From the sequence record NC_049816.1: a DNA stretch of 51,111 nt; one strand, written 5' to 3'. The notes below the pieces were generated by a model. That model saw only the letters and a program-made list of their open reading frames with translations. It was not told the origin of the DNA and made no database searches. The position numbers and the translations under genes were made by a program. Positions 1,949 to 45,742 of this stretch are shown piece by piece; the first letter of the stretch is position 1; each line of letters starts with the position of its first letter. Source of the stretch: Escherichia phage tunus.

Positions 1949-1993
1949 AAATAGCACTTTTTGCTAAACGCGATGCCCAAGATCGTGTATAGT
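1949..1993 (+). promoter_or_regulatory. Phage promoter module (21-bp box, variant GCTAAAC, + 19-bp spacer + TATAGT)
   Basis: Match to AAATAGCACTTTTTGTTAAAA box, 19-bp spacer, -10 TATAGT; about 30 nt upstream of the 2025 start. Confidence 0.5.
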
Positions 1994-2024
1994 TGAAAAC
2001 AACAACAACTAAGGAGATATAAAG

Positions 2025-2294
2025 ATGAAAAAGTTAATCGCAGTTATCGCCACTGTAGCCGCTCTGACAGGATGCGCAGCGTCGCCTACTGGAAACTTCA
2101 AGGAGATCGATTGCACGGCAAAATTTAACGTTAAAACATTCCCTGTTAACGGATTCCATGAAGTCAAAATTAATGCAGTCCGCGAAAACAGATTCAGCCA
2201 AAAGCAATACAGGTTGAGCGTTGACAATAAAGAAGTTAAATTTATCAACCGTTGGCAAAATGAAAGTAAATTTATTGATTTGAGGTGTAATTAA
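2025..2294 (+). CDS. Small lipoprotein, candidate superinfection-exclusion (Cor/Llp-like) protein
   Basis: 89 aa, RBS AAGGAG; signal peptide MKKLIAVIATVAALTGC with lipobox LTGC. Confidence 0.55.
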   Translation: MKKLIAVIATVAALTGCAASPTGNFKEIDCTAKFNVKTFPVNGFHEVKINAVRENRFSQKQYRLSVDNKEVKFINRWQNESKFIDLRCN

Positions 2295-2572
2295 TGGCGC
2301 AATATGGTTATGCAATATATGACGATCGAGGAAGGGAAGTTACAGGACTTTTAACGCCTGTTTTCTTCCTTGATAAATTCACTCAGCCATCAGGTAGCAA
2401 GACTTACCAAAACAGGCCGCCAGGTAAATCATTGAAAGCAATATATGTTGGCATGAATTCCTGGCGTGGTGGCGACCCTGGCGCACCAAACTTAGGGGTG
2501 AGTGGCGACACCGTTACATGGAGTGGGCTTTCTGGATCTGATTCAAGATATATATATACTTTTTGGGGGTGA
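2294..2572 (+). CDS. Hypothetical protein
   Basis: 92-aa ORF; start overlaps upstream stop (TAATG); no recognisable motif. Confidence 0.4.
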   Translation: MAQYGYAIYDDRGREVTGLLTPVFFLDKFTQPSGSKTYQNRPPGKSLKAIYVGMNSWRGGDPGAPNLGVSGDTVTWSGLSGSDSRYIYTFWG

Positions 2573-2574
2573 TA

Positions 2575-3189
2575 ATGTACGGGATGAGTATAAAAAAATC
2601 AGACGGATCGTTATGGTTAAGTCCAGATTTCACTCCAGTTAATCTAATTGATCGGGCCGTAATATCTGCTAATACCGGAACCGTTTTTACTTCGTCAATT
2701 CCTGTTGATAGGGTATGTTTTTTCTTTGTTAGATTGACCGCTAAATCATACATATCATTCACGCAATTTAACAATGGTGGAAGGCACGCAATAAGACTTG
2801 ATAGATCTGATAATCAGGGTGAGGTTATTGTTTATGCTTTTAGTAATATGGTGACTCCCCCAGGTAGTCACGGCATAGCGTTTTATAATGCTCATGGTGA
2901 AATGGTTTATCATGGAAAAATGAGGCCGCTAGATGCAAAGCAAGTAGGAGTAAGCGGGATCGCATTTGATGTTAACATGGGCTATCCTTGCGCCATAATG
3001 CCATCACTGACAGCATTAAACTCTGTTCCTAATCCGGCTTTAGGTGGATTCATGATTTTTGAGTCTCAAGCTGCCGCGTATGGTAACGGGATCTACTCTT
3101 TTTCTAGGCAGGTTGCACAAACTCCTGGACCTGTTGGTATTTACACCGCTTCATCTGTTTTGGTTATAAATGCATCACACTATGATTAA
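2575..3189 (+). CDS. Hypothetical protein
   Basis: ATG at 2575 preceded by GGGGGT; converges on the J-like gene at a shared terminator. Confidence 0.45.
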   Translation: MYGMSIKKSDGSLWLSPDFTPVNLIDRAVISANTGTVFTSSIPVDRVCFFFVRLTAKSYISFTQFNNGGRHAIRLDRSDNQGEVIVYAFSNMVTPPGSHGIAFYNAHGEMVYHGKMRPLDAKQVGVSGIAFDVNMGYPCAIMPSLTALNSVPNPALGGFMIFESQAAAYGNGIYSFSRQVAQTPGPVGIYTASSVLVINASHYD

Positions 3190-3193
3190 AATT

Positions 3194-3218
3194 AAAGGGG
3201 GCTATGCCCCCTTTTTTT
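3194..3218. terminator. Bidirectional intrinsic terminator
   Basis: GC hairpin GGGGGctatgCCCCC flanked by A-run and T-run between convergent genes. Confidence 0.6.
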
Positions 3219-6200
3219 ACCAGCTTCCGGTAATCCTTCCGACTTCAACCCTCAATACTCCGTTTGCATCTTTTACCTTCAATCCCTCATTGGTGAATTT
3301 AGTAGCTCCTTCTCCTGGCGTTGATCCGTAATTCTCAAAGATTCCGTTTTTATCAAGCCTCCATCCTTGCTGGTTTTGAACAAAGTTGTTTGACTGAATC
3401 ACATTACCAATCATCGCATTAGTGATTGAACCGTTCTTAACCAAAAGACTATTAATGAAAACCTGATTATTCTCAACCACGAAAGGCAAAGTAAAAGTCC
3501 CTCCAGTAGAGCTAGTCATAATGGCGAACCTGTTAGCATCAAACAAAATTTGCGAGATAAGGCCGGATGAACCCTGCGAAAGCTGCATCACCATTCCTGC
3601 GCTGTATTGCTGGCCTTTGTAAGTAAGGCCAAGTTTCATAGCGTATTTAGCGCCAACTGAATCAACGCTCGCCCAAGAATCCAACTTTTCAACCAATGCA
3701 GATTCAACGTCGCCAAATCGTGCTGTTAATGCCTGGTCAGCCTGAACCCTTGCCTCTGTCTCATTGGCGATCGCCTGTTTCACTTCTGAGATGTTAGCCT
3801 CGACTTCTGTTTTGATAACTCCGTCAAGGTCGTTTATCTCTTTCGTGAACTTAGCGTCAAGCTGCTGAACGGCCTGAGCGCGCGCTTCTGACTCGTTAGT
3901 GATTGTCTGCCTTACATCGCTAATGCTTGCAGAAGTATCCTTGCGCACGCCGTCGATTTCTTTTGTGAATTTAGAATCAAGCTGCTGAATTTGAGTCGCT
4001 CGCGTCTCTGATTCAGTGGCAATTGCCTCCTGCACTGTCTTGATGCTTGATGTTATCTCGCCATCAATTGATGCCCTTAACTCTTCGATTTGAGTTACGC
4101 GCGCTTCTGTTTCATTGGCGATAAGCTCAAGAGCATGACCATATTCAGCCTTGCGCTTTCCGTTTTGCACTCGCGTCCACTTCACATCTGCATCATTTGC
4201 CAACGCGTTCTGTATGATTGATTGTGCCTGGTCTTTGATTTTATTGGCGCTGTCTATGGCGTTCTCTTTGATTTCTTGACCAGCTTCTGTATCAAAAATC
4301 TTGTCCAGAATGTCGCCCAAAACAGATTCAACATCATCTGACGCCATACCGCGAACAAAGTCAGTCCAACTGGAAACGTTGCCTATTCTGTCAACGCTGC
4401 GGATTCTATACCATACAACTTGCCCCGCTGGTAACGTGCTATGCCAATACTCATATTGAGGATATGGAATCAGCGTAAGCAGACTTGAGTTTTCAACCGT
4501 TCCGTCTGGCGATTGGTGAAGCTCAATGTAAGCCGTATCGCCTGATCCTTCCGGCATACCCCATTTGACACGAATGCCAAAAACTTCATTATCAGAAGCC
4601 GTAAGATTAATCGGCGCTCCTGGCTCGCCAACTTTACCTGTCAGAGTGGCGGTTGCAATCTTTGACCACGGGGAAGCGTTACCGCTTGCAGAAACGGATC
4701 TCACCCTTACTTGGTAGTTGCCTGAATAAATCCCTTCTACCTCTATCTCTTTGTTAGCGGTCTGCGGCGTATTCAGCCAGTTACCATCACCTTTTCGCCA
4801 CTGCATTTCATAAAGCGATGCGTAAGGAACCTTATCCCATGAAACAACCATAGTCTCAACGCTAACGCCCTGCACGACGCGAGAATAAGATGAGATCTTA
4901 ACGTTCTCAGGCGCTGCCATCACGTCAGGCTGAACAATTGAAGTCGGCCTGTCATCAATGTTTACGCCATAATCAATCTCGTCGTATTTGTTCGGATCGT
5001 ACTCCACAGCCGTGATTGAATAGGTAAACTCGTTTTCGTCATCACCCTTGCTGATAGTTGTCACAACGTATTGCTGCAACGCAAGATCAGTACGGTCAAT
5101 CGCAAAAACAGTATCAGGCTTAACATCAAAACCAAATCCAATATTTAACTCTATGGTTTTTCCGTCTGCGCTAACCTTTGAGATCGTGCGCTTAACTGGC
5201 TTGCCGTCCGGCTTGTTGATGATAATAAAATCACCAGGGCGAGCATCAACCTTAAACGGAACGAAAACCTGCAATCCTGAAACTTCCATTACTCGGCCCG
5301 ATAGGTTTAACGTTAGGTTGCTACTCTGAAAATTATCAGCGATAGCAATAACATCACCTATTGATGGAATCATCCCCTCTAGTCCGGTAGCAAAGTTTAC
5401 AGTAGTGCTTCTAAGGTTTGTTTTCAAAACCCACCGACCGCGACGATTCGCTTCGCTCCTGCGTGTGCACCCGATCGCTGTAATGCTTGTTGGATTGTAT
5501 CCAAATCGTAATGCCGCCTCAGTATCAAAAACACCCTCTACGTCCTGCTGATACATGTTTTGTTCGTCGTCAAACGTCACGTTACACTGCGTGTACATGC
5601 TTTTTTCGCTTGCGGTTGTGTACTGAAAATCACCGTTGATGACGTTTTCATTAGTAAACACGTATGATGGATCGCGTGGCTTATCAATCACGATTGATAA
5701 GCTCTCACCATTCCAAAAACTCATTCCGCGAAAGATTGAGCAAATGTCACGGATTAGCTGATAAGCCTCAACTTGATTCTGAATCACCACATCGCATAGG
5801 TAGCGAGGCTCAGTACCGCCCTTACCGTCTGGAACTTTCTGATCACAGTAAACGCCCGCCTCGTATAAGCTCCACTTGTCGATCTGTATTCCTAACTCTC
5901 GCTGATCAAGTCCATAACGCTGATTTGTCACCAGATCATAAAGAACCCAAGCGGGATTATTTGACCACGCTTTTTTAAAAGTCCCATCCCATGACCCGTG
6001 ATATTCTCTTGATATTGGATCATAGTTGCTTGGCACATTAATAATCTTCCATTTCTTTTTTATAGAAATGTTAGGGATTTGCGTAGGAAACAATTCACTG
6101 TCAAATTCTACGAATACAAGGCCAGTCAGAGGATAACGGAATTTTGCATCAACAACCTCAGCGTAACTTTGCAGCTTGATTTTATCAGTTACCTTTGAAG

Positions 6201-6795: not shown

Positions 6796-6843
6796 GACTT
6801 TTAACCTTTTGTGCTGTTTCTTGGTTTGCACATTATAAATGCA

Positions 6844-12714: not shown

Positions 12715-12785
12715 CTTAAGATCTCCTTATAGCACTTTTTGTTAAAAGTGGAATTAATTTATTTGATAGATTGATTTTACAGGAA

Positions 12786-16472: not shown

Positions 16473-16522
16473 TAGATGATAGCACTTTTTGTTAAACGTG
16501 CAATGTTTTTTTATGCTATTAG

Positions 16523-21090: not shown

Positions 21091-21118
21091 TGATTATATA
21101 ACTTTTTAGCAATTAGTG

Positions 21119-22687
21119 CTATTTATTGCGTAGACCAGCCAGCTTTTTCATCCTTGCTACCGGATCATCTGCCAAGTTCATTTCGACGTTAACAGCATCA
21201 ACTATATTATCGACAATATCATCATGGGGATGAGAATCGTCAAAAGTGAACGCTGCAACCTCTGCCAGTATCTCAGGTAACATGGGATGACTTTCTGGCA
21301 GTGCCACACGTCCGGCCCTCATTACTGGCGCGGCGTCCATTGCTCGCGTTACCTTGTCATTGCTTCGCTGAACGGGATTTATATCAATCGGGATCTTCTT
21401 TTTGGCCCCCTGAATCAAACCCGTGCCGCTGGCCTTATCCTCAATGTGGATACGTCGCAAGCTGCCACACTCCTTATTGCGCTTCCAGCACTGATTAACG
21501 AAGGCAATAAAATTTAATTCAAGATCCGGCGCTTCCCACTTTCCGCGAATGCCATCAATGAAGTAAACGCGATTCTTATACATCCCCCAATAACAAAAAA
21601 CTGAATAGTCGTTAAGCTCTCCGGCCTTCTGCGCGGTATCACCAGTAATAAATGTGTATTCAAAGCGATCCGGTTTAGGAAGTGCGCATTTTTCGCCGCT
21701 GCCGTAATACTGGAACCACTCTGTTTTAAACACGTTGCCGCCAAGCGCGATGGGTTGCTGTTGGTACTGACTGGCGAACGTATAAGGATCTGCATTGCGC
21801 AATGCAAGCAATTCCTCCGCGCTTTCCTTCGCAGGCCAAAATGAATAATGAGCAACGCCATCTATCATCACTGGCTTACTTGACAACACATCACGATCAA
21901 ATTCAGGCTTCAACCAATCAGGAAGCGTTTCGCGGTATTCTTTCGTAACCAGCGCCGGAATACTCACAACTTTAAACTCAATACCACCCATCCCGCCATT
22001 AAGCATAAACCAGGTGGAATCATTAACGTGTAGTCGCTGTTGCACCATAACAATCGGCGTAGTGTCTTTCATTCGACGCGATCGCACTGTGTTTTTTAAC
22101 CGCATGTGGATCGCCTCACGCTTGACCTTAGAAAGCATATCATCAGGCTTGTCTGGATCGTCCAGAACCAGCATACCAGTAAAACCATCATCCATATAGC
22201 CGCCACGCAAACCTGTTACCTGTCCGCCAATAGAACGTGAGTTAACTTGCAATTTAACCTTGCCGCCATCCGTAACTATGAGATCTTTTGCGCTCGCCTT
22301 TGCCAGTTTTCCTGGCCATAGCTCTTGCCACTCAGGAGAACCGATAATCTCCTTTATCCTGTTGCTGTTTTGCTGGACAAGTCCATCACTAAACGAAAGG
22401 TTAAGGTTTCTCACCTTCCGACTTTTCAATGACGCGTAGGGTGACATGTGGATCGAGAAAATCTCAGTCTTACCGCTACCTGGCGTAATGTTGAAAATCA
22501 CATTCTGCGACTCTCCATTGATGATCTTCTCTACCTCACTGCACAATAAGCTAAAATGCCAGTTGCTCTGGAATTTTTGCCCCTGCAATAACTGAAACCA
22601 GATTCTGATCATCTTTTCGAATGAATGCTCACTGATTTCTTTAATGGCTCGCTTTTGCGCCGCCGTCAAATCTTCCCATATGATCAT
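21119..22687 (-). CDS. Terminase large subunit
   Basis: 522 aa; Walker A NITPGSGKTE; start overlaps small subunit stop (TAATG). Confidence 0.9.
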   Translation of the reverse strand: MIIWEDLTAAQKRAIKEISEHSFEKMIRIWFQLLQGQKFQSNWHFSLLCSEVEKIINGESQNVIFNITPGSGKTEIFSIHMSPYASLKSRKVRNLNLSFSDGLVQQNSNRIKEIIGSPEWQELWPGKLAKASAKDLIVTDGGKVKLQVNSRSIGGQVTGLRGGYMDDGFTGMLVLDDPDKPDDMLSKVKREAIHMRLKNTVRSRRMKDTTPIVMVQQRLHVNDSTWFMLNGGMGGIEFKVVSIPALVTKEYRETLPDWLKPEFDRDVLSSKPVMIDGVAHYSFWPAKESAEELLALRNADPYTFASQYQQQPIALGGNVFKTEWFQYYGSGEKCALPKPDRFEYTFITGDTAQKAGELNDYSVFCYWGMYKNRVYFIDGIRGKWEAPDLELNFIAFVNQCWKRNKECGSLRRIHIEDKASGTGLIQGAKKKIPIDINPVQRSNDKVTRAMDAAPVMRAGRVALPESHPMLPEILAEVAAFTFDDSHPHDDIVDNIVDAVNVEMNLADDPVARMKKLAGLRNK

Positions 22688-25264: not shown

Positions 25265-25296
25265 TGCGCTTTCCTCTGTTTCGCTTCAATAAGGGC

Positions 25297-25342
25297 ACTT
25301 TACCAAATGCCCTTGCGGAAGTTTTAACAAAAAGTGCTATTA
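25297..25342 (-). promoter_or_regulatory. Phage promoter module (box + 19-bp hairpin spacer + TAAAGT)
   Basis: Box AAATAGCACTTTTTGTTAAAA read on minus strand; spacer palindrome AAGGGCA...TGCCCTT. Confidence 0.5.
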
Positions 25343-26590: not shown

Positions 26591-26636
26591 ATTATAGCGA
26601 GGCATTGTGCCTCGCGTTTAGCAATTCGTGCTATTT
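26591..26636 (-). promoter_or_regulatory. Phage promoter module (variant box + 19-bp hairpin spacer + TATAAT)
   Basis: Box variant AAATAGCACGAATTGCTAAAC; spacer palindrome GCGAGGCacaatGCCTCGC; perfect -10. Confidence 0.5.
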
Positions 26637-27810: not shown

Positions 27811-28070
27811 TTATTTTCTCCCTCTACTACCAGCGTGTAAAGCAATTCAGGATCAATCATGTTGCGGCGGCGTGGCTCTCGTGGCGAATCGGGCCATGCG
27901 CATTTTCCGTTTGACACAATATAGCCTACCAGGTCACTAAGTTTTGAGATTCCATCTCGACGGATAACGTCGTACCCAATATCCTTGCCGTCAATAGAAT
28001 GGATAGCAAAGAAGCTAGGCTCGCCGTCGATAACGTCCACCGCTTTAAAAAACTCAATCTTGTTAGCCAT
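27807..28070 (-). CDS. Hypothetical protein
   Basis: 87 aa, RBS GAGGA. Confidence 0.4.
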   Translation of the reverse strand: MANKIEFFKAVDVIDGEPSFFAIHSIDGKDIGYDVIRRDGISKLSDLVGYIVSNGKCAWPDSPREPRRRNMIDPELLYTLVVEGENK

Positions 28071-28101
28071 GATTTAATCCTCGTTTGTTGTTTATGGGCT
28101 T

Positions 28102-28147
28102 ACTATACCGCAAGCCCGATAATCTGTTTTTGCAAAAAGTGCTATTT
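28102..28147 (-). promoter_or_regulatory. Phage promoter module (box + 19-bp hairpin spacer + TATAGT)
   Basis: Box variant AAATAGCACTTTTTGCAAAAA; spacer palindrome around GGGCTTgcGGtatagtAAGCCC. Confidence 0.5.
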
Positions 28148-29305: not shown

Positions 29306-29350
29306 ATTATACCTGGCCCCACATTTGAGTTTTAACAATTCGTGCTATTT
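29306..29350 (-). promoter_or_regulatory. Phage promoter module (variant box + 18-bp spacer + TATAAT)
   Basis: Box variant AAATAGCACGAATTGTTAAAA; perfect -10. Confidence 0.5.
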
Positions 29351-30440: not shown

Positions 30441-30636
30441 TAACCCCTTTCACATAAATAACCGTTTAATCTTTGGTGACGGGCTTCACTTCGTCGGTAG
30501 CCTCAGCTCAGTGACCTATCTAGCGTTCTGCCTGGTGGCGAGTGTGATAGTTCTGGCCTCACGGTTGGGAATCCTGACACTTCGATCAAGCCCCTGCGTT
30601 ACTCCTCTCCCGCAGCAATCCTTGCCGCCCGTCTAT
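30441..30636 (-). ncRNA. Candidate structured RNA / cis-regulatory leader (about 195 nt, GC-rich, no ORF)
   Basis: Lies between a promoter module and the 30440 start; no start-codon-initiated ORF on the transcribed strand; possible closing helix GACGGGC...GCCCGUC and internal hairpins. Confidence 0.3.
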
Positions 30637-30642: not shown

Positions 30643-30688
30643 ATTATGCCTGGTTATCGCTTTTGAGTTTTAACAAAAAGTGCTATTT
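30643..30688 (-). promoter_or_regulatory. Phage promoter module (box + 19-bp spacer + CATAAT)
   Basis: Exact box AAATAGCACTTTTTGTTAAAA on minus strand. Confidence 0.5.
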
Positions 30689-31104: not shown

Positions 31105-31150
31105 TATTATGCCAGGCTTCGCGCCTGGCGTTTTAACAAAAAGTGCTATT
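31105..31150 (-). promoter_or_regulatory. Phage promoter module (box + 19-bp hairpin spacer + CATAAT)
   Basis: Exact box; spacer palindrome CGCCAGGCgcgaaGCCTGGC; transcript would begin near CATCGAAACGAG. Confidence 0.5.
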
Positions 31151-31418
31151 TTGTCTCGACGGTCATATGTTCTGTCTTCGTGCCTTTGCCATTGCTTTTC
31201 GACACTTCCCAGCTAGTAGCGCCCTTGCAGTTGGTGAAGTAAACAGTGCGATCGTCATAGAATCGGTAAACGGTGCAACCGTCAGCGGTGAATAGCTCCC
31301 TTACGCTGTAGTCATCGCCAGGGTTAGCCATCTGCACATTGCCAACATGCGCGCCATCTTCTTTGCATCCGGTCAGGAATGCCATTGCCGCCAAAACGCT
31401 GATTAATGCCTTTTTCAT
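31146..31418 (-). CDS. Small lipoprotein, second candidate exclusion / surface lipoprotein
   Basis: 90 aa, RBS AAGAGGAAG; signal peptide MKKALISVLAAMAFLTGC with lipobox. Confidence 0.55.
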   Translation of the reverse strand: MKKALISVLAAMAFLTGCKEDGAHVGNVQMANPGDDYSVRELFTADGCTVYRFYDDRTVYFTNCKGATSWEVSKSNGKGTKTEHMTVETK

Positions 31419-31879
31419 TGCTCTTCCTCTTTGATGATTTCGCGGATCATATCCTGGTAGCGGCTTACGCCCTCACAAGCTCCAGCCAGTTTATCCCCTT
31501 CCAGGTCAACGATATTCGGGATTGCTGCCAGTATGCGATCGGCAAACTTTTTGATCGCCCTTGCCTTGATGGCTGGCAATTCTTCGGGTGTGATGATTTT
31601 CCTTTTCGATTCGCGGACCATGCGGAAAACGTAAAATTTATCATCTTCCGTTTCCTCTACCTTGATGCTTACCCGACCTGCGGCCCTTACTTCTGGAACG
31701 CGGTTGATAATGGTCCGGCTGTAGGATGAACTGCGCGTGATCTTGTAGCAGTCGTCACCGCTTAACATTCCGGCCAGGTCAATTAGTGACATTTTATACT
31801 CTTCAATATCGCCACTAGCCAGGCGGCGACCAAGCTCGCGAAGCCAATCGCAATAGTCCTTAGTGGTCTTCTGTTCCAT
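31415..31879 (-). CDS. Hypothetical early protein (first gene of leftward early unit)
   Basis: ATG at 31879 with RBS GGAGGAAAGG; the track's upstream ATG overlaps the promoter -10. Confidence 0.5.
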   Translation of the reverse strand: MEQKTTKDYCDWLRELGRRLASGDIEEYKMSLIDLAGMLSGDDCYKITRSSSYSRTIINRVPEVRAAGRVSIKVEETEDDKFYVFRMVRESKRKIITPEELPAIKARAIKKFADRILAAIPNIVDLEGDKLAGACEGVSRYQDMIREIIKEEEQ

Positions 31880-31910
31880 TTCCTTTCCTCCAGTTGTTGA
31901 CTGTTGGCGC

Positions 31911-31939
31911 ATTATAAAAGCTATTTGGTGCGTGTCAAT
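31911..31939 (-). promoter_or_regulatory. sigma70-type early promoter TTGACA-N17-TATAAT (leftward)
   Basis: Consensus hexamers; resembles the promoter at 1554-1581. Confidence 0.55.
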
Positions 31940-32374
31940 GTTTTTGTTGTATTCAAAACGTTACCAATATCGAAAAACTACAAAATCATGCGCAAGTTAT
32001 TGATTTCGCGGCTGTTATTTTTCTGTTCACTCTGTTAACGCAATCCGCCGGAAAAAGTATATATACATATGCAATCCGCCGCGCGCGCAACTATCCATAT
32101 ATACCCACACACAACCACACCATAACCAACAAAAAGCACTGTAACAGTGAGAACAAAAAGAAAACATTATAGATATATATAAATAAATAATCTTTATTTT
32201 CAATGTATTATAGAGGATTTTCTTTGTTTTTTCCGTTTTCGCTACACCGGAAAACCGCGCGGAAACACGCCGCCTGAAATCGGTAACAGGGGTGAACAAA
32301 AGACAACAACCACTGACAGCCAGGCGGAAAAGTGAGGCAAGAGGGGAAGGTTTCACTATCTCCCCTGCAACCAA

Positions 32375-32463
32375 TGATTAAACGTGATTACTTTTCTCAT
32401 CAAATTTGCAAAGGCAATCATCATTTTGACGTGATTTGATTACGAATGATTACTTTTGATTAT
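32375..32463. repeat. Phased GATTA(C) direct repeats (iteron-like)
   Basis: Five TGATTA/GATTAC copies at about 32376, 32386, 32438, 32448, 32458, the last three exactly 10 bp apart, just upstream of the rightward promoter module. Confidence 0.45.
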
Positions 32464-32491
32464 TTCGATCGCAATCCTGGCGATAACCGTC

Positions 32492-32537
32492 AAATAGCAC
32501 TTTTTGTTAAAACTCAGGCCACCTGATCGGGTACATT
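32492..32537 (+). promoter_or_regulatory. Phage promoter module (box + 19-bp spacer + TACATT)
   Basis: Exact box; transcript would start near the conserved CATCGAAACGAACC. Confidence 0.5.
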
Positions 32538-32577: not shown

Positions 32578-32880
32578 ATGATTAACATGAACCTGTTCAC
32601 CGCTAAAGACCACGAGAATATGGCAGCACTGGCTGACCTGTTCGAAACAGCAGAAATGGCTGAACTGTTCATGACTGAGCATGAATTCCAGGACGGCATC
32701 AGCAATGCCATTGAAACAAATTTTGGCGACGCTCGCGTTACTGGTGCAATGTTTGCAAATATCGCGCGTAAATTCTTCCAGGCTTACCGCGACGCTCGCC
32801 ATGTAAAGGGCACGTTTGGATCTGCGAAAGACACCGCTGAAACTATCCGCGCTTACATTGAGCGCCACGCAAAACAATAA
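32578..32880 (+). CDS. Hypothetical acidic early protein (first gene of rightward early unit)
   Basis: 100-aa ORF with weak Shine-Dalgarno GAGGAC; Asp/Glu-rich N-terminal half. Confidence 0.5.
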   Translation: MINMNLFTAKDHENMAALADLFETAEMAELFMTEHEFQDGISNAIETNFGDARVTGAMFANIARKFFQAYRDARHVKGTFGSAKDTAETIRAYIERHAKQ

Positions 32881-32924
32881 ATAGCACTTTTTGTTAAAAG
32901 CTGATCGGGATAACCTGGTATAGT
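32879..32924 (+). promoter_or_regulatory. Phage promoter module (box + 19-bp hairpin spacer + TATAGT)
   Basis: Exact box; spacer palindrome GGGATAAC...GTTATCCC; followed by CATCGAAACGAACC. Confidence 0.5.
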
Positions 32925-32959
32925 TATCCCATCGAAACGAACCGCTCAGGAGATAGTAA

Positions 32960-33921: not shown

Positions 33922-34185
33922 ATGAAAATTAATGCACCTATTCCAGTTAAGCGCAAAGCACGTTTGCTCAATAACGGATGTTACGCCCTGCGGCCTGCAT
34001 TTAAGGCTCGCACATTTCCGGTTATCGTTAACGTGTCTCACGTAAGCCGTAGCGGAAACCTGGTATTCGTTAAAGGTGAAGATCTGGCGGCGCTTGGATT
34101 CTATGGCGGTGCTCACGGAGAACCGCTCGGATTCTGGCTTGTAGATCCGTTAACTGGAGAGCGTGAAATCGAATTTCTGGACTAA
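33922..34185 (+). CDS. Hypothetical protein
   Basis: 87 aa, RBS AAGGAG; about 225 bp of low-coding-potential sequence upstream. Confidence 0.45.
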   Translation: MKINAPIPVKRKARLLNNGCYALRPAFKARTFPVIVNVSHVSRSGNLVFVKGEDLAALGFYGGAHGEPLGFWLVDPLTGEREIEFLD

Positions 34186-34229
34186 ATAGCACTTTTTGTT
34201 AAAAACGATGCGCTGCTGATTGGTATAGT
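34184..34229 (+). promoter_or_regulatory. Phage promoter module (box + 19-bp hairpin spacer + TATAGT)
   Basis: Exact box; spacer palindrome GATGCGCT...AGCGCATC. Confidence 0.5.
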
Positions 34230-34260
34230 AAGCGCATCGACAACAAACGAGGATTTAAAG

Positions 34261-35396: not shown

Positions 35397-36107
35397 ATGT
35401 ATAAAGGTTTAATATTCTCCCTATTTGATGGATCTGGTAAAGCCGTTAAAGATTGGGCTGATAATGGCTATAAGTGCATTTGCTTTAATGCTGACGGCGG
35501 CGATCACGGTGATTACCAGTCAGTGCGCATACAGCATGAGAATATCGAATACGTTAACGTCTGGATTGATGATGCTTTTTATGTTAAGGCAATCAATAAT
35601 GAGTGGGGCAATCCTGATTTTATTATGGCCTTCCCACCATGCACCGACCTTGCAAATAGCGGATCTCGCCATTGGGCTAAAAAGCGCCTTAAAAATCCAT
35701 CTTTCCAGGATGAGGCCGCCGACACTTGCAGAATCGCGGCTGATATAGCTGATTATTTCGGTGTTCCATACATGATCGAAAATCCGGTTGGCAAGTTGTC
35801 AACGTTATGGCGAAAGCCTGATTATACGTTCCATCCGTGCGATTACGCTAGCTATCTGCCGGAAGATGATAAACATCCCGACTTCCCTGATATTATTCCG
35901 GCGCGGGATCGCTATTTTAAGAAAACATGCCTCTGGACTGGCAACGGCTTTGTTATTCCTCCACGCGCTTTAATCCTGCCGAAAGAGAAAGACAAAGATA
36001 ATCCAGGCTGGGCCAAAACTGGCGGCAATTCATCGCGCACAAAGATGATCCGCTCCCTCACTCCGCGCGGCTTTGCTCGCGCCGTCTTTGAGTCAAACTC
36101 AAAATAG
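35397..36107 (+). CDS. DNA cytosine-C5 methyltransferase-like protein (short, core motifs only)
   Basis: ATG at 35397 with RBS GAGGT; motif I-like FSLFDGSG, motif IV-like FPPC, motif VI-like ENPVGKL in canonical order and spacing; no obvious target-recognition domain. Confidence 0.55.
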   Translation: MYKGLIFSLFDGSGKAVKDWADNGYKCICFNADGGDHGDYQSVRIQHENIEYVNVWIDDAFYVKAINNEWGNPDFIMAFPPCTDLANSGSRHWAKKRLKNPSFQDEAADTCRIAADIADYFGVPYMIENPVGKLSTLWRKPDYTFHPCDYASYLPEDDKHPDFPDIIPARDRYFKKTCLWTGNGFVIPPRALILPKEKDKDNPGWAKTGGNSSRTKMIRSLTPRGFARAVFESNSK

Positions 36108-36147
36108 CACTTTTTGTTAAAAGCCAGGTGTAAAAACCTGGCATAAT
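36102..36147 (+). promoter_or_regulatory. Phage promoter module (box + 19-bp hairpin spacer + CATAAT)
   Basis: Exact box; spacer palindrome CCAGGtgtaaaaaCCTGG. Confidence 0.5.
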
Positions 36148-36563: not shown

Positions 36564-36781
36564 TAAACAGTGAAAACCGTTACAAAGTAACGAATTCTAC
36601 CACAAAGACTTTCAAGCCTGGCGATATAGTCAGGCCCATCAAAAAAACGGCGGTAGGTTGGCTGATTGGTTTTTCATATCATAAGGCTCTTTACTTTACG
36701 TTTAAGGATGGGATCATGGGGGAATGCTATAGCGACCGCCATCCTGATCGACTTCTGGTTGCAATAGAGCGGATCAAATAG
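36560..36781 (+). CDS. Hypothetical protein
   Basis: 73 aa, start overlaps upstream stop. Confidence 0.4.
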   Translation: MINSENRYKVTNSTTKTFKPGDIVRPIKKTAVGWLIGFSYHKALYFTFKDGIMGECYSDRHPDRLLVAIERIK

Positions 36782-36821
36782 CACTTTTTGACAAAACGGG
36801 GTAGTATTGGGCCGTTAAAAT
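36776..36821 (+). promoter_or_regulatory. Phage promoter module (variant box TTGACAAAA + 19-bp spacer + TAAAAT)
   Basis: Box variant AAATAGCACTTTTTGACAAAA; hairpin GGGCCGttaaaatttaCGGCCC. Confidence 0.45.
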
Positions 36822-38937: not shown

Positions 38938-38983
38938 GAATAGCATTTTTTGTTAAAACTCCCGACCTTGTGTCGGGTATATT
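38938..38983 (+). promoter_or_regulatory. Phage promoter module (box + 19-bp hairpin spacer + TATATT)
   Basis: Box variant gAATAGCATTTTTTGTTAAAA; spacer palindrome CCCGACcttgtgTCGGG; followed by CATCGAAACGAACC. Confidence 0.5.
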
Positions 38984-39655: not shown

Positions 39656-40143
39656 TTCAGATCCATTGTGCAATATTTGTATTCGACCTTGCGCCTGTTA
39701 AGTAAGCCTTTAGACTTCTCGCGCTTTCCTGTTTTTGGGTTATGGTAATAAGTCCAACGATAAAGCTGATCGCAAGCCTCGTTTAATTTCCCCTGGTTTA
39801 TGAGTTTCAGCATTGTTGAATTTCTGAAAGCTCCCACACCTGCATTGTAAGTGAATGAGTACATTGCTGCACGCATACTATCAGGAATGTAAACCTTAAC
39901 TTGCTTGTCAACTTCCTTTTTAGCAACCTGGATATGCTTAGCCAACAAAGCATCACACTCTTTTTTAGTGTACGTTTTCCCCAGGATAACATCTGGTCCG
40001 GTGATTCCTGCGCAAACCGTCCATACTCCCGCAATATCTTTGTATGGCTTGTATCTTACCCCTTCGATCTCTTCAAGAAGTGGAGAAGTCAAGGCAACCG
40101 CAACGCCAAAGGCCGCAGCCGCTACCCTGTTCTTTATGCTCAT
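39652..40143 (-). CDS. SAR endolysin (GH24 / T4-lysozyme-type muramidase with signal-arrest-release N-terminus)
   Basis: 163 aa; weakly hydrophobic Ala/Gly-rich N-terminus followed by catalytic E-x8-D/C-x5-T-like lysozyme motif. Confidence 0.75.
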
Positions 40144-40358
40144 TACTTGCCCCTGATTTCAATAGCTTTTTGAATATCACCTTTTTCGATCGCTTCGTGG
40201 AATTTTTTACTATCACGCCAGCGAAGGTAAGCGCCCCATGCACCGAATGCAGCCATTAAAACAAAGCTGGCAATAGCAATGGTTAACTGCCCTGTAGCGG
40301 CGCTTGCGATAGATGAACCGCCAGATCCAGCGGTAGCTGCGTTAATAAAATCTTTCAT
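40143..40358 (-). CDS. Pinholin-type holin
   Basis: 71 aa with two TMDs, the first Gly/Ala/Ser-rich; basic C-terminus; immediately upstream of SAR endolysin. Confidence 0.65.
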
Positions 40359-40381
40359 TTTTATTCTCCATATTAATTAAA

Positions 40382-40395
40382 GTCAATATATTGAC
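40382..40395. promoter_or_regulatory. 14-bp perfect palindrome GTCAATATATTGAC upstream of holin (candidate operator)
   Basis: Exact inverted repeat about 25 nt upstream of the holin start. Confidence 0.3.
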
Positions 40396-40504
40396 CGCAT
40401 GATAAACGTACATGGTAAAAAAATTAAACAAAAAAAAGAGGCGACAAACGCCGCCCCCTTGCAAGTTTTTGATTTAATTTGTCATTGATTTAAATAAAAA
40501 TTCA

Positions 40505-41620
40505 TCAATTCATCATTTCTGGATAGTGAACAAATCGCCCAACCTCTCCATGCTCTTTGTCGTAAATGATAACCGCCGCGCGGCGTCGAGATCGCCAGCC
40601 ACCGCGCGCTGCGTATGCGTCTTTTGCCGCCAGGGTGCTATGTACTTCCACGATGCCAAGCGACGTTTCCGTTACGGTCTGGTGATGCCAATGCCCTACG
40701 TGCGCATACATCGTTTTTGAGTTTCCGAAGTCCTCCCGCCAATCGGACGCGCACATCATTAGCAACGTTTCAGGCTTTCGCACTGTGTGCCCGTGATGGT
40801 ACGCAAGGAAAGTTTTTCCGTATTGCGTGTGGTGCACAACGCGAGGGGAAACATCAACGTAAACGCGCGGCTCGTTTTCATATGCTGCCGCCATTGCTGC
40901 GCGTAGCCAAATCATTCCTGATTGGTCATGATTGCCCTCTACGATCTGGACTTCAACATGTTTATGCTTTAACAACATTTTATTGATTGCGCGTCGCATT
41001 GCACGGATGGCAACGTAAACCAATTTTGCATATCGACTATCTTGATCCAGTACGTGACCGCTTGCAGGTGTAACCGCCTCCAGGCCGTCGCTATGCAGCA
41101 TATCGCCACCAATCAGGATGACAGCCTTTTCGCTATCCGGTGCGCACATTAAAGCATAGTCGATAAAGTTATTCATAACGCGCTCTGCCGTGGCAGTATC
41201 CCAATTTTCGCCGCATTCGTGCTTATGGGCCATAGCGCCTAAGTGCATGTCAAAGATCGGATACAAGGAAAGCGTTTCGTTATAGTCGCGCTCCTGTAAT
41301 GGGACCGGATCTAATCGCGGAACTTCCTCGCTAAATGCCTCCATTGCTGCGCGCATTAATGCTTCTAATTGCTCTTTATCCTTGCTGGTTTTAGTCCACT
41401 TTAGGATTATGTTGCCTTCTTTGTCAGTCATTACTGACTCACCATGAACGCCAAAACCAGGCGCTCCAATGGTGGATACCTGGCCTTGCTTTGCAAGACG
41501 CGCCGCGCGACGCTCGACGCTTCTCACATTCATTCCGTACTCTTGAGCGATCTGTTTATATGTCTTACCAGCCGCCCGTTCGATCTTGAATTGCTCATCT
41601 GTAATTTTTACATTTTTCAT
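40505..41620 (-). CDS. HTH domain - calcineurin-like metallophosphoesterase fusion protein
   Basis: ATG at 41620; N-terminal HTH (TYKQIAQEYGMNVRSVERRAARL); metallophosphatase motifs DMH, GDMLH, GNHD, GHWH. Confidence 0.6.
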   Translation of the reverse strand: MKNVKITDEQFKIERAAGKTYKQIAQEYGMNVRSVERRAARLAKQGQVSTIGAPGFGVHGESVMTDKEGNIILKWTKTSKDKEQLEALMRAAMEAFSEEVPRLDPVPLQERDYNETLSLYPIFDMHLGAMAHKHECGENWDTATAERVMNNFIDYALMCAPDSEKAVILIGGDMLHSDGLEAVTPASGHVLDQDSRYAKLVYVAIRAMRRAINKMLLKHKHVEVQIVEGNHDQSGMIWLRAAMAAAYENEPRVYVDVSPRVVHHTQYGKTFLAYHHGHTVRKPETLLMMCASDWREDFGNSKTMYAHVGHWHHQTVTETSLGIVEVHSTLAAKDAYAARGGWRSRRRAAVIIYDKEHGEVGRFVHYPEMMN

Positions 41621-41714
41621 TCTGCTACCTATCTCATCACTATATGGTACATAACTGTAACAGCGATGATAACGGGTAACGGTAGAACAAACAAGCGCCA
41701 CATGATAACTATCC

Positions 41715-41957
41715 TCATTTATAATATTTGCGAGGCTCTCGGATTTTAGCCATTGCCTCTTTGAAATCAATTTTTGTTGGAACTGCTGGAACTCTTACCA
41801 TTTTTCGCGGCCTTTCCTTGAGGAAAGTCATCTTGTCGCCGCTAATTATGCTCACATCTGCAATATCAAAGTATTGCGCGATCTTCTTTATGTCGTCGGC
41901 AATACCGCATTCTTTAGCGTGATTCCATACCGCATCTCTTCCTTGCTCAACCTTCAT
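41715..41957 (-). CDS. Hypothetical protein
   Basis: ATG at 41957 overlapping stop of upstream microprotein. Confidence 0.4.
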   Translation of the reverse strand: MKVEQGRDAVWNHAKECGIADDIKKIAQYFDIADVSIISGDKMTFLKERPRKMVRVPAVPTKIDFKEAMAKIREPRKYYK

Positions 41958-42158: not shown

Positions 42159-42204
42159 ATTATGCCCGACACTAGGCCGGGCGTTTTAACAAAAAGTGCT
42201 ATTT
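42159..42204 (-). promoter_or_regulatory. Phage promoter module (box + 19-bp hairpin spacer + CATAAT)
   Basis: Exact box; spacer palindrome CCCGGCctagtgtCGGG. Confidence 0.5.
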
Positions 42205-42438
42205 GATCGCTGAATCGTAAAATTCTTGCAGGTCTTTAGCAATTATTTCATGCCATTTTTCAAGAGGATGTTTTCTAGTTTCCTCAAAACTCATATCCAG
42301 GCAGCCGGAAAACTCCCACAAATCGCAATCAATATATGGCTTAACGAACGAATTTTTTTCCATACAGTCGCACACCATAGCGCGATATAAAAGAAATTCG
42401 CCATCCTCATTAAGTAAAACGCTTCTCTCTTTTTCCAT
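42199..42438 (-). CDS. Hypothetical Cys-rich protein
   Basis: ATG at 42438 with RBS GGAG; multiple Cys. Confidence 0.4.
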   Translation of the reverse strand: MEKERSVLLNEDGEFLLYRAMVCDCMEKNSFVKPYIDCDLWEFSGCLDMSFEETRKHPLEKWHEIIAKDLQEFYDSAIK

Positions 42439-42442
42439 CGTA

Positions 42443-43168: not shown

Positions 43169-43207
43169 TTCATTTCTCCGCTATTAAAAGCTATCTTGTG
43201 TTATTGA

Positions 43208-43253
43208 ATTATGGCGCAATCCATCGCGCCAGTTTTAACAAAAAGTGCTATTT
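43208..43253 (-). promoter_or_regulatory. Phage promoter module (box + 19-bp hairpin spacer + CATAAT)
   Basis: Exact box; spacer palindrome GGCGCGATggattGCGCC. Confidence 0.5.
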
Positions 43254-43667
43254 AAGCATGTATTCAATAGCCAACTTAAACTGATTAAATCCGTAGGCGA
43301 CCGCAGCGAATCCTCCTAAGCTGCGAACTCGACGCAAAAAAGCCTTTTGTTCATCGCTGACTGGTGATGCTTTACCCTTGCCTGATTTATTCACTCGTTT
43401 GATCTCAATCGCTGCAAATGGGTATTTTCCGTTTAAACCAATCAGGATGATGAAATCGCTTACACCCTTAACCAAGCCGGACTGCTGATCAATCATCGCC
43501 GTTGCTTTAGACTTCTCATTCTCGTTTACCGTATGCCACGCCAGCAAGTAAGGATGAGTATAAGTCAACCACTGAAAGCTATCTATCTGGTGATTAACTT
43601 CCTTTCTAGTGTCGGTTGGATCTCTTTCGTAAAACTCAAGATAATCTCCTTTATCAGTTATAGCCAT
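43248..43667 (-). CDS. VRR-NUC-type PD-(D/E)XK nuclease (putative)
   Basis: 139 aa; DFIIL...AIEIK-type motif; translationally coupled to the helicase. Confidence 0.55.
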   Translation of the reverse strand: MAITDKGDYLEFYERDPTDTRKEVNHQIDSFQWLTYTHPYLLAWHTVNENEKSKATAMIDQQSGLVKGVSDFIILIGLNGKYPFAAIEIKRVNKSGKGKASPVSDEQKAFLRRVRSLGGFAAVAYGFNQFKLAIEYMLK

Positions 43668-45664
43668 TAAACAAACTCCCGTTTTGCAATGTTATCCTCA
43701 CCTTTGCCGTTTTTGCGATGCGTTACGCGTACAGGCGGCATGATGTGATGAGCGTATGACATTATTTTACGCGCATTTCTATAGCTCGCCACCATACCAG
43801 CAATCTTGCGATCCGGTATGTGCTGCAATGCTATTTTTCTCCATATCGTCCTGCAAATGTTGCTTTCTGACTCAGGGAAAAATCTTTCGTATGCCTTGAA
43901 CGTGTCGCCGTTGGCCTCAAGCTCATAGCAAAAAATAATTCCTTTCTGGTTTTTCGTCATATCAACGCGGAAAGATTTAACGTTGCACCAATCGTTTTTG
44001 GTGTAGTGCTTACCGCTTAACTTCTCGTTAGGATCGACAAGAGAAATATCGCAACAACGGCATACTCTCGCCACTACGTCGTTTTTTGTTCCGCAACCGC
44101 GCTTGATTATCTTTTTCGTTCTCGGATCTACCTGGTCCTCGCAAATTCTGTAAGTCCAAAAATGCTCGCATCTCTTCCCGTTATCGTCTACGTGCATACA
44201 TCGGCGAGCGTAAAAGCTGTTTAGCGTTCCACATATCGGACAAGTCTTAGGCTCTTTCCCGTTTGTAAATCTCTTTTGGAATTGCGCTTGCTCAAGGATT
44301 GGATCGAAATACAAATCCCCTAACTCATCCATAGTACCTGCAAAATCCAATACAAGATGATCTTTTTTCTTGAATCCCTGATCAATGTGCCATTGCTTAA
44401 GCAGTCGCATGCCGCGCCCCAAAAGCTGGATAAGCAATGTTAGAGATCCTATCTTTCTCAGTATTACCGAAGTATCCCAAAACGGAACGTTAACGCCAGT
44501 GGTAAGCGCCTGTACCTGGAAGATGTATTTTACTTTTCCCTCGTATGCCTCCCTCAGCCACTCTTTACGCTGATTATCTCCAGTCTTGCCAGTTATGATC
44601 CTGTATTCAACGCCTGGCGGCAGTGCGGCGGCGGCCTCCTTGCAGTGCCTTTCCCCTGCGCATGTAACTAAAACTCCGTTCCTGTCTTTGCATATCTCAT
44701 GGACTTTAGCCATGATTTTCTGTGTCATTGTTGCGTCTTGATGGATCTTTTCTTCCATCTTGCGCAATGTTTTAGCGTCAAAGTCTGAAACGCCATCCTC
44801 GCTACTGGCTTCGAACTCTGAAAGGTCATAACCCAGGTCGCCTACGTCGCCGAAGTTTGTTGGCACTACCGAACCGAATTTGATTAAGTAGTTTGTGTCT
44901 ATGTTAGTCACCTGCTCACGCCAGAATCCCTTTTTGTTCTTATCTTCAACCAGTATTGGAACCACGCCGCGAAATTCAGATCCAGTCATACCGAATATTC
45001 GCAATTCGTGCCCGTATGCCTCGCGACACCTGCGCATCATTTCCATGATTATTACGGTGTACTGTGTGCGTCCTGTTCCGAACATTGGATCGCCATTGGA
45101 ATCAAATTGCTGTTCTTCTCCAATCAGTACTGGCAAATCCTTCTTAGTGGTCATCTGCTGGTAAGATTCATTATTTTCTATCGCGTCCGCGAGATCCTCC
45201 CAATCCACCTGGTGACATTCATCAATACCGATAACGTGCGGAACATAATCACCTAACGACTTAAACAATCCGTTTACTACAGTGCCCTCAGAACCGACCA
45301 CGATCGGAAAGTATGCGCTTTTTGTTTTCAGTCCGGCGCAATAGATTGAGTTTGGCACTCCAAGATTGCTGATCTCTTCCGAATCCTGATCAACAATTTC
45401 AGCCTGGCGAGCAAGGACCATCATTTTCAATCCCATTTTTCGGCATTGCGCCGCAACCATCGCAAACATCAATGTTTTGCCAGCCGACACAGAAGCCTTA
45501 ACAAAGAAAGGATGCTCATAGTTTTTCATGCGCTTTGCGATCTCGGCATACGCAACGCACTGATAAGGATAAGGCACTATATTGCCAACCGTGAATCGCT
45601 CTTGGATGCTTTTTATTACTGCCTCGCCTAACGCTGATATTTGTTTTTCGATATTTGGAATCAT
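43667..45664 (-). CDS. SF2 DNA helicase with C-terminal zinc-finger region
   Basis: 665 aa; motif I VSAGKTL, motif II IDECH; several CxxC pairs in C-terminal third. Confidence 0.8.
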   Translation of the reverse strand: MIPNIEKQISALGEAVIKSIQERFTVGNIVPYPYQCVAYAEIAKRMKNYEHPFFVKASVSAGKTLMFAMVAAQCRKMGLKMMVLARQAEIVDQDSEEISNLGVPNSIYCAGLKTKSAYFPIVVGSEGTVVNGLFKSLGDYVPHVIGIDECHQVDWEDLADAIENNESYQQMTTKKDLPVLIGEEQQFDSNGDPMFGTGRTQYTVIIMEMMRRCREAYGHELRIFGMTGSEFRGVVPILVEDKNKKGFWREQVTNIDTNYLIKFGSVVPTNFGDVGDLGYDLSEFEASSEDGVSDFDAKTLRKMEEKIHQDATMTQKIMAKVHEICKDRNGVLVTCAGERHCKEAAAALPPGVEYRIITGKTGDNQRKEWLREAYEGKVKYIFQVQALTTGVNVPFWDTSVILRKIGSLTLLIQLLGRGMRLLKQWHIDQGFKKKDHLVLDFAGTMDELGDLYFDPILEQAQFQKRFTNGKEPKTCPICGTLNSFYARRCMHVDDNGKRCEHFWTYRICEDQVDPRTKKIIKRGCGTKNDVVARVCRCCDISLVDPNEKLSGKHYTKNDWCNVKSFRVDMTKNQKGIIFCYELEANGDTFKAYERFFPESESNICRTIWRKIALQHIPDRKIAGMVASYRNARKIMSYAHHIMPPVRVTHRKNGKGEDNIAKREFV

Positions 45665-45696
45665 CTTAAACCTTTAAAAAATGCCATTTGGAGTAT

Positions 45697-45742
45697 ATAA
45701 TAGACTCATTACAATAAACTGTTTTAACAAAAAATGCTATGA
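45697..45742 (-). promoter_or_regulatory. Phage promoter module for helicase unit (box + 19-bp spacer + TATTAT)
   Basis: Box variant on minus strand in the divergent region between helicase and HTH gene. Confidence 0.45.

Follow-up and report, generated by a model that had tools for sequence, protein, structure and literature searches.

The window analysed here is the whole 51,111-nucleotide sequence NC_049816.1 of Escherichia phage tunus, and our subject is a 21-nucleotide (nt) box that recurs across it, mostly as part of short promoter modules. The window holds all or nearly all of the genome of a virulent, T1-like coliphage, which is placed in the Tempevirinae/Warwickvirus group of the Drexlerviridae. 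It is 96-97% identical to phages tonn, swan01 and FritzSarasin, and its gene order is that of the annotated relatives FritzSarasin and T1. The late structural genes are on the minus strand, at about 3-23 kb of the window, and the early and middle genes form divergent blocks at 23-47 kb. Among the latter is the gene for a Cro/YdaS-type regulator (45752..46228, plus strand). No RNA polymerase or sigma gene is annotated in FritzSarasin or T1, which agrees with the claim of an earlier note on this DNA that the phage has no RNA polymerase gene of its own. Neither a repressor nor an integrase is annotated in these two relatives, and these phages are virulent.

The box, AAATAGCACTTTTTGTTAAAA, has 19 copies with at most 3 mismatches in the window, versus 0.00 in 100 shuffled sequences. 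Two diverged variants, with a central GAA (26616-26636, minus strand) or a central AAA (6799-6819, minus strand), bring the total to 21 boxes (Table 1). For 16 of the 21, a -10 hexamer follows after a spacer of 19 nt (14 modules) or 18 nt (1949+ and 29350-). The hexamers are CATAAT (5 modules), TATAGT (4), TATAAT (2), and TAAAGT, TACATT, TAAAAT, TATATT and TATTAT (1 each). There is a G at -14 in 14 of the 16 modules, and an A at the predicted +1 in 13 of the 16. All sixteen box, spacer and -10 modules that the earlier note described were recovered. It gave a spacer of 18 nt to just one module, instead of two, although its 19 nt is right for the others, and the -10 that it placed at 31105 is actually at 31106. 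It also overlooked five boxes, none of which has a good -10 at 18-20 nt. Its rule that the box always points the same way as the downstream gene is limited to the 16 promoters, because three of the boxes without a good -10 oppose the flanking late genes.

Table 1. Promoter modules, boxes without a good -10 hexamer, and box-independent promoters in the window.
Feature	Coordinates (strand)	Elements	Remarks
Promoter module	1949..1993 (+)	box 1949-1969, 18-nt spacer, -10 TATAGT 1988-1993	heads divergent unit; weak 4-bp stem
Promoter module	25297..25342 (-)	box 25322-25342, 19-nt spacer, -10 TAAAGT	7-bp hairpin AAGGGCA/TGCCCTT with -10 in loop; predicted +1 A at 25290
Promoter module	26591..26636 (-)	GAA box variant AAATAGCACGAATTGCTAAAC, 19-nt spacer, -10 TATAAT	8-bp hairpin between box and -10
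Promoter module	28102..28147 (-)	box, 19-nt spacer, -10 TATAGT	GGGCTT/AAGCCC hairpin flanking -10
Promoter module	29306..29350 (-)	GAA box variant, 18-nt spacer, -10 TATAAT	
Promoter module	30643..30688 (-)	box, 19-nt spacer, -10 CATAAT	no hairpin; unusual 196-nt leader downstream
Promoter module	31106..31151 (-)	box, 19-nt spacer, -10 CATAAT	GCCAGGC/GCCTGGC hairpin abutting -10
Promoter module	32492..32537 (+)	-10 TACATT	weak hairpin; first rightward promoter past the 540-bp non-coding region
Promoter module	32879..32924 (+)	-10 TATAGT	-10 in loop of 8-bp hairpin GGGATAAC/GTTATCCC
Promoter module	34184..34229 (+)	-10 TATAGT	-10 in loop of 9-bp hairpin CGATGCGCT/AGCGCATCG; chimeric cassette relative to FritzSarasin
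Promoter module	36102..36147 (+)	-10 CATAAT	spacer hairpin GCCAGGT/ACCTGGC
Promoter module	36776..36821 (+)	box variant TTGACAAAA, -10 TAAAAT	8-bp hairpin around -10; precedes putative helicase gene
Promoter module	38938..38983 (+)	box GAATAGCATTTTTTGTTAAAA, -10 TATATT	hairpin CCCGAC/GTCGGG, then T-rich run
Promoter module	42159..42204 (-)	-10 CATAAT	G-U pair in spacer hairpin
Promoter module	43208..43253 (-)	-10 CATAAT	hairpin TGGCGC/GCGCCA; precedes Dam methylase gene
Promoter module	45697..45742 (-)	-10 TATTAT	no hairpin; DNA helicase operon; -10 overlaps that of the divergent regulator promoter
Box	6799..6819 (-)	variant AAACAGCACAAAAGGTTAAAA, no -10	3 nt before ATG of J-like tail-tip gene; same arrangement in T1 and TLS
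Box	12727..12747 (+), feature to 12772	weak -10 TAGATT at 19 nt	opposes late genes; aimed at bidirectional terminator
Box	16477..16497 (+)	only TATTAG at 19 nt	opposes late genes; beside terminator preceding major capsid gene; kept in T1
Box	21104..21124 (-)	GCACTAATTGCTAAA, no -10 at 18-20 nt	between terminase and portal genes, then terminator
Box	47284..47304 (-)	no -10 at 18-20 nt	points back at primase terminator
Sigma-70 promoter	31911..31938 (-)	perfect TTGACA-16-TATAAT (12/12)	box-independent; head of leftward early operon
Sigma-70 promoter	45673..45701 (+)	canonical TTTAAA-17-TATAAT	Cro-like regulator gene 45752..46228; transcription passes through reverse box

The box itself is not new to the literature, where it stands as a repeat without an explanation. 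In 2024, TLS was re-annotated (PMC11447400), and the authors describe a 21-nt direct repeat, aaATAGCACnnnTTGnTAAAA, which occurs at 21 places in that phage, about 76 nt upstream of start codons, and is present in T1, Rtp and Rogue1 as well. The TLS repeat is the same element as our box: the two agree in consensus, and the T, G and A subtypes occur in both. Its proposed roles (a stoperator, an enhancer site or an UP element) were speculative only, and three promoters were counted in the whole TLS genome. The link to a -10 at a fixed 19 nt, the hairpins, the match to a known host site (the marbox, below) and the proposed involvement of a host factor are all drawn here and not in that study. The earlier note did not recognise the box as a marbox either. 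We did not find the marbox match in the literature on the box, nor any publication that links these phages or the box to the host regulators MarA, SoxS or Rob, and we found no published map of transcription start sites for the Drexlerviridae.

Scanning IMG/VR for the pattern yielded 120 loci on T1-like contigs; these, together with the window and two reference genomes, contain 386 distinct modules. In 297 of these (77%), a -10-like hexamer begins exactly 19 nt past the box; the distance is 18 nt in another 16 modules and 20 nt in another 18. The earlier note's reading would have been refuted by absence of the box from orthologous junctions in related phages, but the box is present there: T1 has 14 modules, FritzSarasin has 16, and the Klebsiella webervirus NJS1 has 13. 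Between subfamilies, protein identity falls to 40-70%, yet the box does not change. There are no modules in coliphage Sortsne and Vibrio phage K217, which are unrelated phages with the same helicase gene.

The sequence logo of the 297 modules is that of a promoter without a -35 element. The -10 reads T/C-A-T-A-A/G-T, with T or C at -12, A at -11 and T at -7 standing out, and it is accompanied by G at -14 (86%), C at -1 (69%), A at +1 (85%) and a conserved leader, AUCGAAACGAA, downstream of +1. There is nothing like TTGACA at -35 to -30, and apart from G-14, positions -30 to -15 carry no information. The earlier note had proposed an activator-dependent promoter in which the box replaces the -35, and the fixed distance from box to -10 in 77% of modules, the G at -14, and the lack of TTGACA all support this. 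Counting from the predicted start, the box lies at -52 to -32 and is centered near -41/-42, which is the position of a class II activator. The middle promoters of phage T4 are similar: there, too, the -10 is good, the -35 is lacking, and a box that is conserved upstream (the MotA box) takes its place. However, the MotA box is centered at -30 and is read by the phage protein MotA together with AsiA, while our box is at -41/-42 and neither MotA nor AsiA is annotated in the relatives.

The marbox is an asymmetric site for one monomer of the AraC-family activators MarA, SoxS and Rob (or RamA, in Klebsiella). Both E. coli and Klebsiella have activators of the MarA/SoxS/Rob type. Martin et al. 1999 reportedly gave the consensus AYnGCACnnWnnRYYAAA along with an "18-19 bp" rule. 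This consensus has 16 exact matches in the window, and 25 matches with at most one mismatch, versus 2.6 expected. A published search pattern for marboxes, gcannwwntgnnaaa (PMC12052159), has 19 exact matches in the window instead of the 1.5 expected, and all 19 are boxes.

We also built a weight matrix solely from 75 sites for MarA, SoxS, Rob or RamA that were mapped in Salmonella by chromatin immunoprecipitation sequencing (ChIP-seq; PMC10268841). The boxes score 15-19 bits, which puts them with the top fifth of the 75 real sites (median 12), and 28 positions in the window score at least as high as the median site, versus 4.4 in shuffled sequences. The consensus of the mapped sites, GCACTAATTGCTAAA, is the exact sequence of the 21104-21124 box. 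Other mapped host sites that are identical or nearly identical to phage boxes are GCATTTTTTGCTAAA, GCACATTTTGTTAAA and GCACAAATTGCTAAA. The positions at which the phage boxes vary (-43 to -41, and -37) are low-information positions of the matrix.

The arrangement around the box also resembles that of host promoters with class II marboxes, such as micF, lpxC P2, lpxL P1 and rfaY P1. In both, the GCAC and AAA elements are about 7 bp apart, a forward marbox near -41 covers the -35 position, there is no -35 hexamer, and the -10 is an ordinary sigma-70 one. For example, micF has GCACTGAATGTCAAA-N20-TAGAAT, with the annotated RNA start 8 nt past the hexamer, and the phage has GCACTTTTTGTTAAA-N20-TATAAT. 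In other words, the distance from AAA to the hexamer is 20 nt in both, and all 16 modules have the orientation of micF. RamA sits at about -41 on micF. In the cryo-electron microscopy structure of Rob at micF (PMC9178005), Rob reads G-47 and A-45 of GCAC and keeps region 4 of sigma-70 off the -35. More broadly, mapped class II sites cluster at -41 in the forward orientation, and those promoters lack a -35 (PMC10268841). As far as its sequence goes, the phage module has every property of a class II marbox promoter. There are differences as well. The phage has about 16 such promoters in a virulent genome of 51 kb, while those of the host are scattered single genes; the phage boxes are close to the consensus and almost identical to each other, while host marboxes are degenerate; and the phage modules, unlike the host promoters, carry a stem-loop in the spacer or around the -10.

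On balance, we favor the view that these are class II marbox promoters that use the host's Rob, MarA, SoxS or RamA and are fused to stem-loops of a kind known from other phages (discussed below). On this view, a host stress regulator probably turns on about 16 of the phage's promoters. Every module would be a sigma-70 promoter of the activator-dependent class II, with a -10 and G-14 but no -35, and transcription would most likely start at the conserved A that lies 7 nt past the hexamer (predicted, for example, at 32931, 34236, 36154 and 31099). Once bound, the activator would take up the -35 region, contact both region 4 of sigma-70 and the C-terminal domain of the alpha subunit (alpha-CTD), and recruit the host RNA polymerase. 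Rob, being constitutively abundant, would be the likeliest default activator, although some of it is sequestered and it responds to bile salts and similar ligands. MarA, SoxS or RamA would add a boost that is induced by stress. A few canonical promoters, such as the one at 31938..31911 and the regulator's own, do not depend on the box.

Several observations weigh against this view. MarA and SoxS are scarce and Rob is largely sequestered in unstressed E. coli, but growth of T1-like phages is fast. The classical mutants that resist T1 lie in fhuA or tonB, and none is known to lie in rob, as might be expected if the three activators are redundant. At A-48, T-40 and T-36, the uniformity of the boxes goes beyond what the marbox consensus demands. 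(That the box is more conserved than any phage protein would be explained if the site is pinned by a conserved host protein.) Five boxes are placed where a class II promoter is impossible, which this view does not account for. Also, the same modules occur in two Drexlerviridae whose records name Vibrio cholerae (phage Vc1) and Pseudomonas aeruginosa (phage Motto) as hosts. To our knowledge, V. cholerae and P. aeruginosa lack MarA, SoxS and Rob, and if the labelled hosts are genuine then a MarA-type host factor is unlikely there. We consider the labels doubtful: both genomes have 45% G+C, the J proteins of the two phages share 92% identity, and there are also T1-like records under the label "Campylobacter". 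Either the hosts are mislabelled or the box does not need enterobacterial factors to work. What the sequence shows directly is the motif, its geometry, the marbox match and the strand-specific hairpins; the start site, the identity of the bound protein and the role of the hairpin are inferred, and binding of an activator to the box is putative.

In favor of a host activator, no homologue of MarA, SoxS or Rob was found among the 583 six-frame open reading frames (ORFs) of the window (best E-value 0.75, with approximate query sequences). A phage-encoded MarA-like protein was rejected on this ground and because the Pfam and PHROGs scans of 28 early or conserved proteins found none and DUF7174, another candidate, is absent from T1 and NJS1.

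The strongest alternative, though we think it unlikely, is that some other phage protein binds the box at -42 as the activator of a delayed-early class of promoters. This could be the Cro-like regulator or an unrecognised small early protein, and the resemblance to the marbox would then be mimicry or coincidence. The regulator is kept in every box-bearing phage that we examined, its gene is present in more than 800 records, and this gene is always back-to-back with a box-type promoter. Its canonical promoter overlaps the -10 of that box-type promoter, which is an autoregulatory layout like that of lambda cI and PRM. The box contains a pseudo-palindrome, TAGCA-N5-TGYTA, centered at -42, and an activator from the phage would fit with the conservation of the box in phages that are labelled Vibrio and Pseudomonas. 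But when 30 homologues of the regulator are aligned, its recognition helix is among the least conserved parts, whereas the box does not vary within the family. The AlphaFold model of the regulator (pLDDT 84) is a single, all-alpha, Cro-like domain with no second helix-turn-helix (HTH) and no MarA-like fold, so we also rejected the idea that the regulator mimics a protein with two HTHs. The conservation of the box is not dyad-symmetric (G-47 is invariant and the mirror position is C or T; A-50/A-51 and A-34/A-33 are on the same strand), and its orientation relative to the -10 is always the same. Scans of 28 early or conserved proteins against Pfam and PHROGs turned up the regulator as the only DNA-binding candidate, which leaves no other conserved small protein with a DNA-binding signature. 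And a chance match to the marbox of about 18-21 bits, in the register and orientation of micF, is very unlikely.

The earlier note had suggested the phage's HTH proteins as binders of the box. Besides the regulator, with its variable recognition helix and single Cro-like HTH, it had in mind a phosphoesterase, whose HTH matches are weak, and both are poor candidates. The phosphoesterase or DNA-repair exonuclease ORF is at 40505-41770 on the minus strand, and the weak HTH-like matches (Sigma70_r4_2, E = 0.002, and HTH_28) are near its N-terminus. In the regulator, two other stretches are almost invariant in the 30 homologues: the basic N-terminal DKRTxNGNNGTRRGxDKKxRK, which is modelled at low confidence, and the C-terminal GYRASFCRPDLRFDSNGKP.

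It is much less probable that the host RNA polymerase itself reads the box, with no extra protein, either as an UP-like element for the alpha-CTD or as a displaced -35 (TTGYTA). The box is A/T-rich, with a T-tract at -43 to -39 and AAAA at -35 to -32; TTGCTA or TTGTTA resembles TTGACA; the G at -14 would give partial independence of a -35; and UP elements were among the options of the TLS authors (PMC11447400). However, the invariance of G-47, C-46, C-44 and G-38 is not a property of UP elements, and the box spans -52 to -32, where it overlaps the -35 position instead of lying upstream of a -35, and no -35 follows it. TTGYTA is 22 bp from the -10, which is out of reach for sigma-70, and there is no -10 at 17 bp downstream of it, so a normal -35 within the box was rejected too.

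We give slightly less credence still to the box as a negative or architectural site, that is, a roadblock of the stoperator type, or a linker for recombination that gene conversion keeps uniform, the -10 being independent of it. The five boxes in non-promoter contexts, by terminators or ribosome-binding sites and in both orientations, would fit this idea; the cassettes do recombine; and stoperators were suggested in the TLS paper (PMC11447400). But 77% of modules, from diverged subfamilies, keep the -10 at 19 nt, and the position-specific variability of the box mirrors the profile of a protein-binding site. Stoperators of the type found in mycobacteriophage L5 were rejected because of that same exact spacing and because no repressor or integrase is annotated in the relatives of this virulent phage. 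As to other known sites, GCAC-N3-TTGC resembles the sigma-54 promoter (TGGCAC-N5-TTGC) but lacks the GG and has the wrong spacing, and sites for CRP, FNR, Fis, IHF, ArcA or DnaA are poor fits (judged by eye against their consensus sequences).

Returning to the proposed marbox promoters, the second part of the module is the hairpin. Perfect stems of at least 6 bp are found in 47% of the 297 modules and in 4% of shuffled sequences, and the mean minimum free energy is -10.4 kcal/mol for the modules and -4.9 kcal/mol for the shuffles. In the window, 12 of the 16 modules have a stem of at least 5 bp. The inverted repeats in the spacer that the earlier note described are thus real, but they are not confined to the spacer, as many of the hairpins hold the -10 in their loop. 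The stems take up the only positions that are otherwise unconstrained. In one arrangement, the stem fits between box and -10 and its 3' arm abuts the hexamer; in the other, the -10 is enclosed and the 3' arm is at -6 to +4. By position, then, stems fall into classes that are upstream of, overlapping, or enclosing the -10. Orthologous junctions in different phages have unrelated stems of different types, which means that structure is under selection and not sequence.

These hairpins appear to act in RNA. The RNA of the sense strand folds more stably than the antisense RNA, by 2.3 kcal/mol (226 vs. 49 modules; Wilcoxon p = 7e-29), while the shuffled sequences are symmetric. There are 304 G-U pairs on the sense strand and 132 on the antisense strand. 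For these reasons, and because the positions of the arms vary, we rejected a DNA cruciform or an N4-like hairpin promoter. Stems of at least 6 bp are present in 51% of modules with a co-oriented ORF that ends just upstream, versus 22% of the others. The earlier note had suggested that the hairpin serves read-through transcripts, and both the strand asymmetry and the doubled frequency behind co-oriented ORFs point the same way. At the heads of divergent units, the three promoters (1949+, 32492+ and 45742-) form stems of just 4-5 bp and fold weakly, with minimum free energies of -1.9 to -5.0 kcal/mol; in 12 of the other 13 modules of the window, the minimum free energy is -9 to -17 kcal/mol. A T-rich run follows 18 of the 52 hairpins of the upstream type, and three "rho-independent terminators" in the GenBank record of T1 are spacer hairpins.

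The best match that we know for the hairpin is the promoter-early stem-loop (PeSL) cassette of the T4-type phages RB49 and phi1, in which the stem-loops terminate or attenuate transcription from upstream and the cassettes mediate gene shuffling (PMC2839356). Both kinds of cassette are intergenic and start at the upstream stop codon; both combine a sigma-70 promoter with a G/C-rich stem-loop that includes G-T(U) pairs and is placed over the -10 or between it and the upstream element, which in PeSLs is the -35; and in both, genes are inserted or deleted by recombination. On the other hand, PeSLs have a normal -35, require no activator, belong to another phage family and share no common sequence with ours, and for our phage the terminator activity is predicted. 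By this analogy, the GC-rich inverted repeat (-31 to -13 and -6 to +4) would form an RNA stem-loop in transcripts from the upstream gene, and would attenuate or terminate these transcripts or stabilise their 3' ends, and the whole cassette also works as a recombination linker.

Traces of such recombination can be seen by comparing the window to FritzSarasin. The module at 34184 consists of the left half of FritzSarasin's module 40886 and the right half of its module 40159, with the crossover in a GCATCGA that both share at the start site; the gene that separates the two in FritzSarasin is lost. A second such loss, identified by eye, is at 28147 (28070-28147). Overall, the window lacks one FritzSarasin gene at each of two places (34184-34260, to be compared with FritzSarasin 40053-40920, and 28070-28147), and each time the module that is left is a chimera of the two flanking ones. 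The same spacer can also be found upstream of different genes.

The five boxes that do not belong to promoters all adjoin rho-independent terminators or ribosome-binding sites, and three of them are antisense. T1 has boxes at the corresponding places for four of the five, including the one at 12727; at its terminase-portal junction we found no box. The reverse complement of the 12727 box abuts the ribosome-binding site of the tape-measure chaperone gene, and that of the box at 47284-47304 abuts the ribosome-binding site of the lateral tail-fibre gene. The antisense boxes that face terminators may give short antisense RNAs or act as roadblocks. For example, the copy at 12727 could give an RNA of about 40 nt that ends at the bidirectional terminator. 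The large terminase gene contains another marbox-like sequence, ACTGCACAATAAGCTAAA (22538-22555, plus strand), which matches the consensus exactly and scores 15.9 bits but has no -10 nearby. It is not a box of this family and may be due to chance.

The sigma-70 promoter at 31911-31938 overlaps the ATG at 31912 that is listed for ORF 31415..31912, so the real start of this gene is probably the downstream ATG near 31879. DUF7174 is the first gene behind this perfect promoter. Between the divergent early operons is a non-coding gap of about 540 bp (31940-32480) with two copies of gcaatccgcc, very AT-rich stretches and, immediately upstream of the 32492 box, several tgattac(ttt) repeats. FritzSarasin has a comparable non-coding gap of about 690 bp. 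This region could be a replication origin or a region where the regulator binds.

The regulator promoter (plus strand) and the box-type helicase promoter (minus strand) use common -10 DNA at 45696-45702. The reverse box is in the leader of the regulator gene and directly precedes its Shine-Dalgarno sequence, and this layout is kept in T1, NJS1, Vc1 and Motto. The arrangement at 45673-45752 looks like a mutually exclusive switch. On the minus strand, the promoter at 30688 is followed by a GC-rich leader of 196 nt (30441-30636), for which no ORF is listed on that strand. The start of this leader (cacacatagacggg.ggcaaggattgct) is kept in phage Motto. The leader has no Rfam match and its folding is not unusually stable (z = +1.35). 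A structured non-coding RNA or a tRNA was rejected for lack of Rfam or tRNA matches, and the leader could be a missed small gene or a decayed gene.

We hold a broader reading somewhat more tentatively, as possible but not quite probable: that the Drexlerviridae, with hundreds of isolates that include candidates for therapy, have wired nearly all of their early and middle promoters to MarA, SoxS, Rob or RamA, which in the host activate multidrug resistance and stress responses, so that stress raises phage expression and the phage titrates the activators. If this is true, then phage expression would rise in cells that are exposed to bile, salicylate or oxidants, and in drug-resistant cells in which mar or ram is derepressed. 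Since each genome has about 20 optimal marboxes, the phage DNA would, as it replicates, titrate the activators away from the efflux and porin regulon. These would be rare examples of strictly lytic phages that give most of their transcription programme to a single host stress regulon. This would also account for a repeat that has stood unexplained since the T1 genome paper (cited in PMC11447400) and the 2024 TLS re-annotation. If it is a phage protein that binds the box, then a protein outside the AraC family would have MarA-like specificity, which is also of interest. If host activators do bind, the near-optimal marbox promoters would be compact, ready-made parts that respond to MarA, SoxS or Rob, and there would be a testable link between the regulation of antibiotic resistance and susceptibility to phage.

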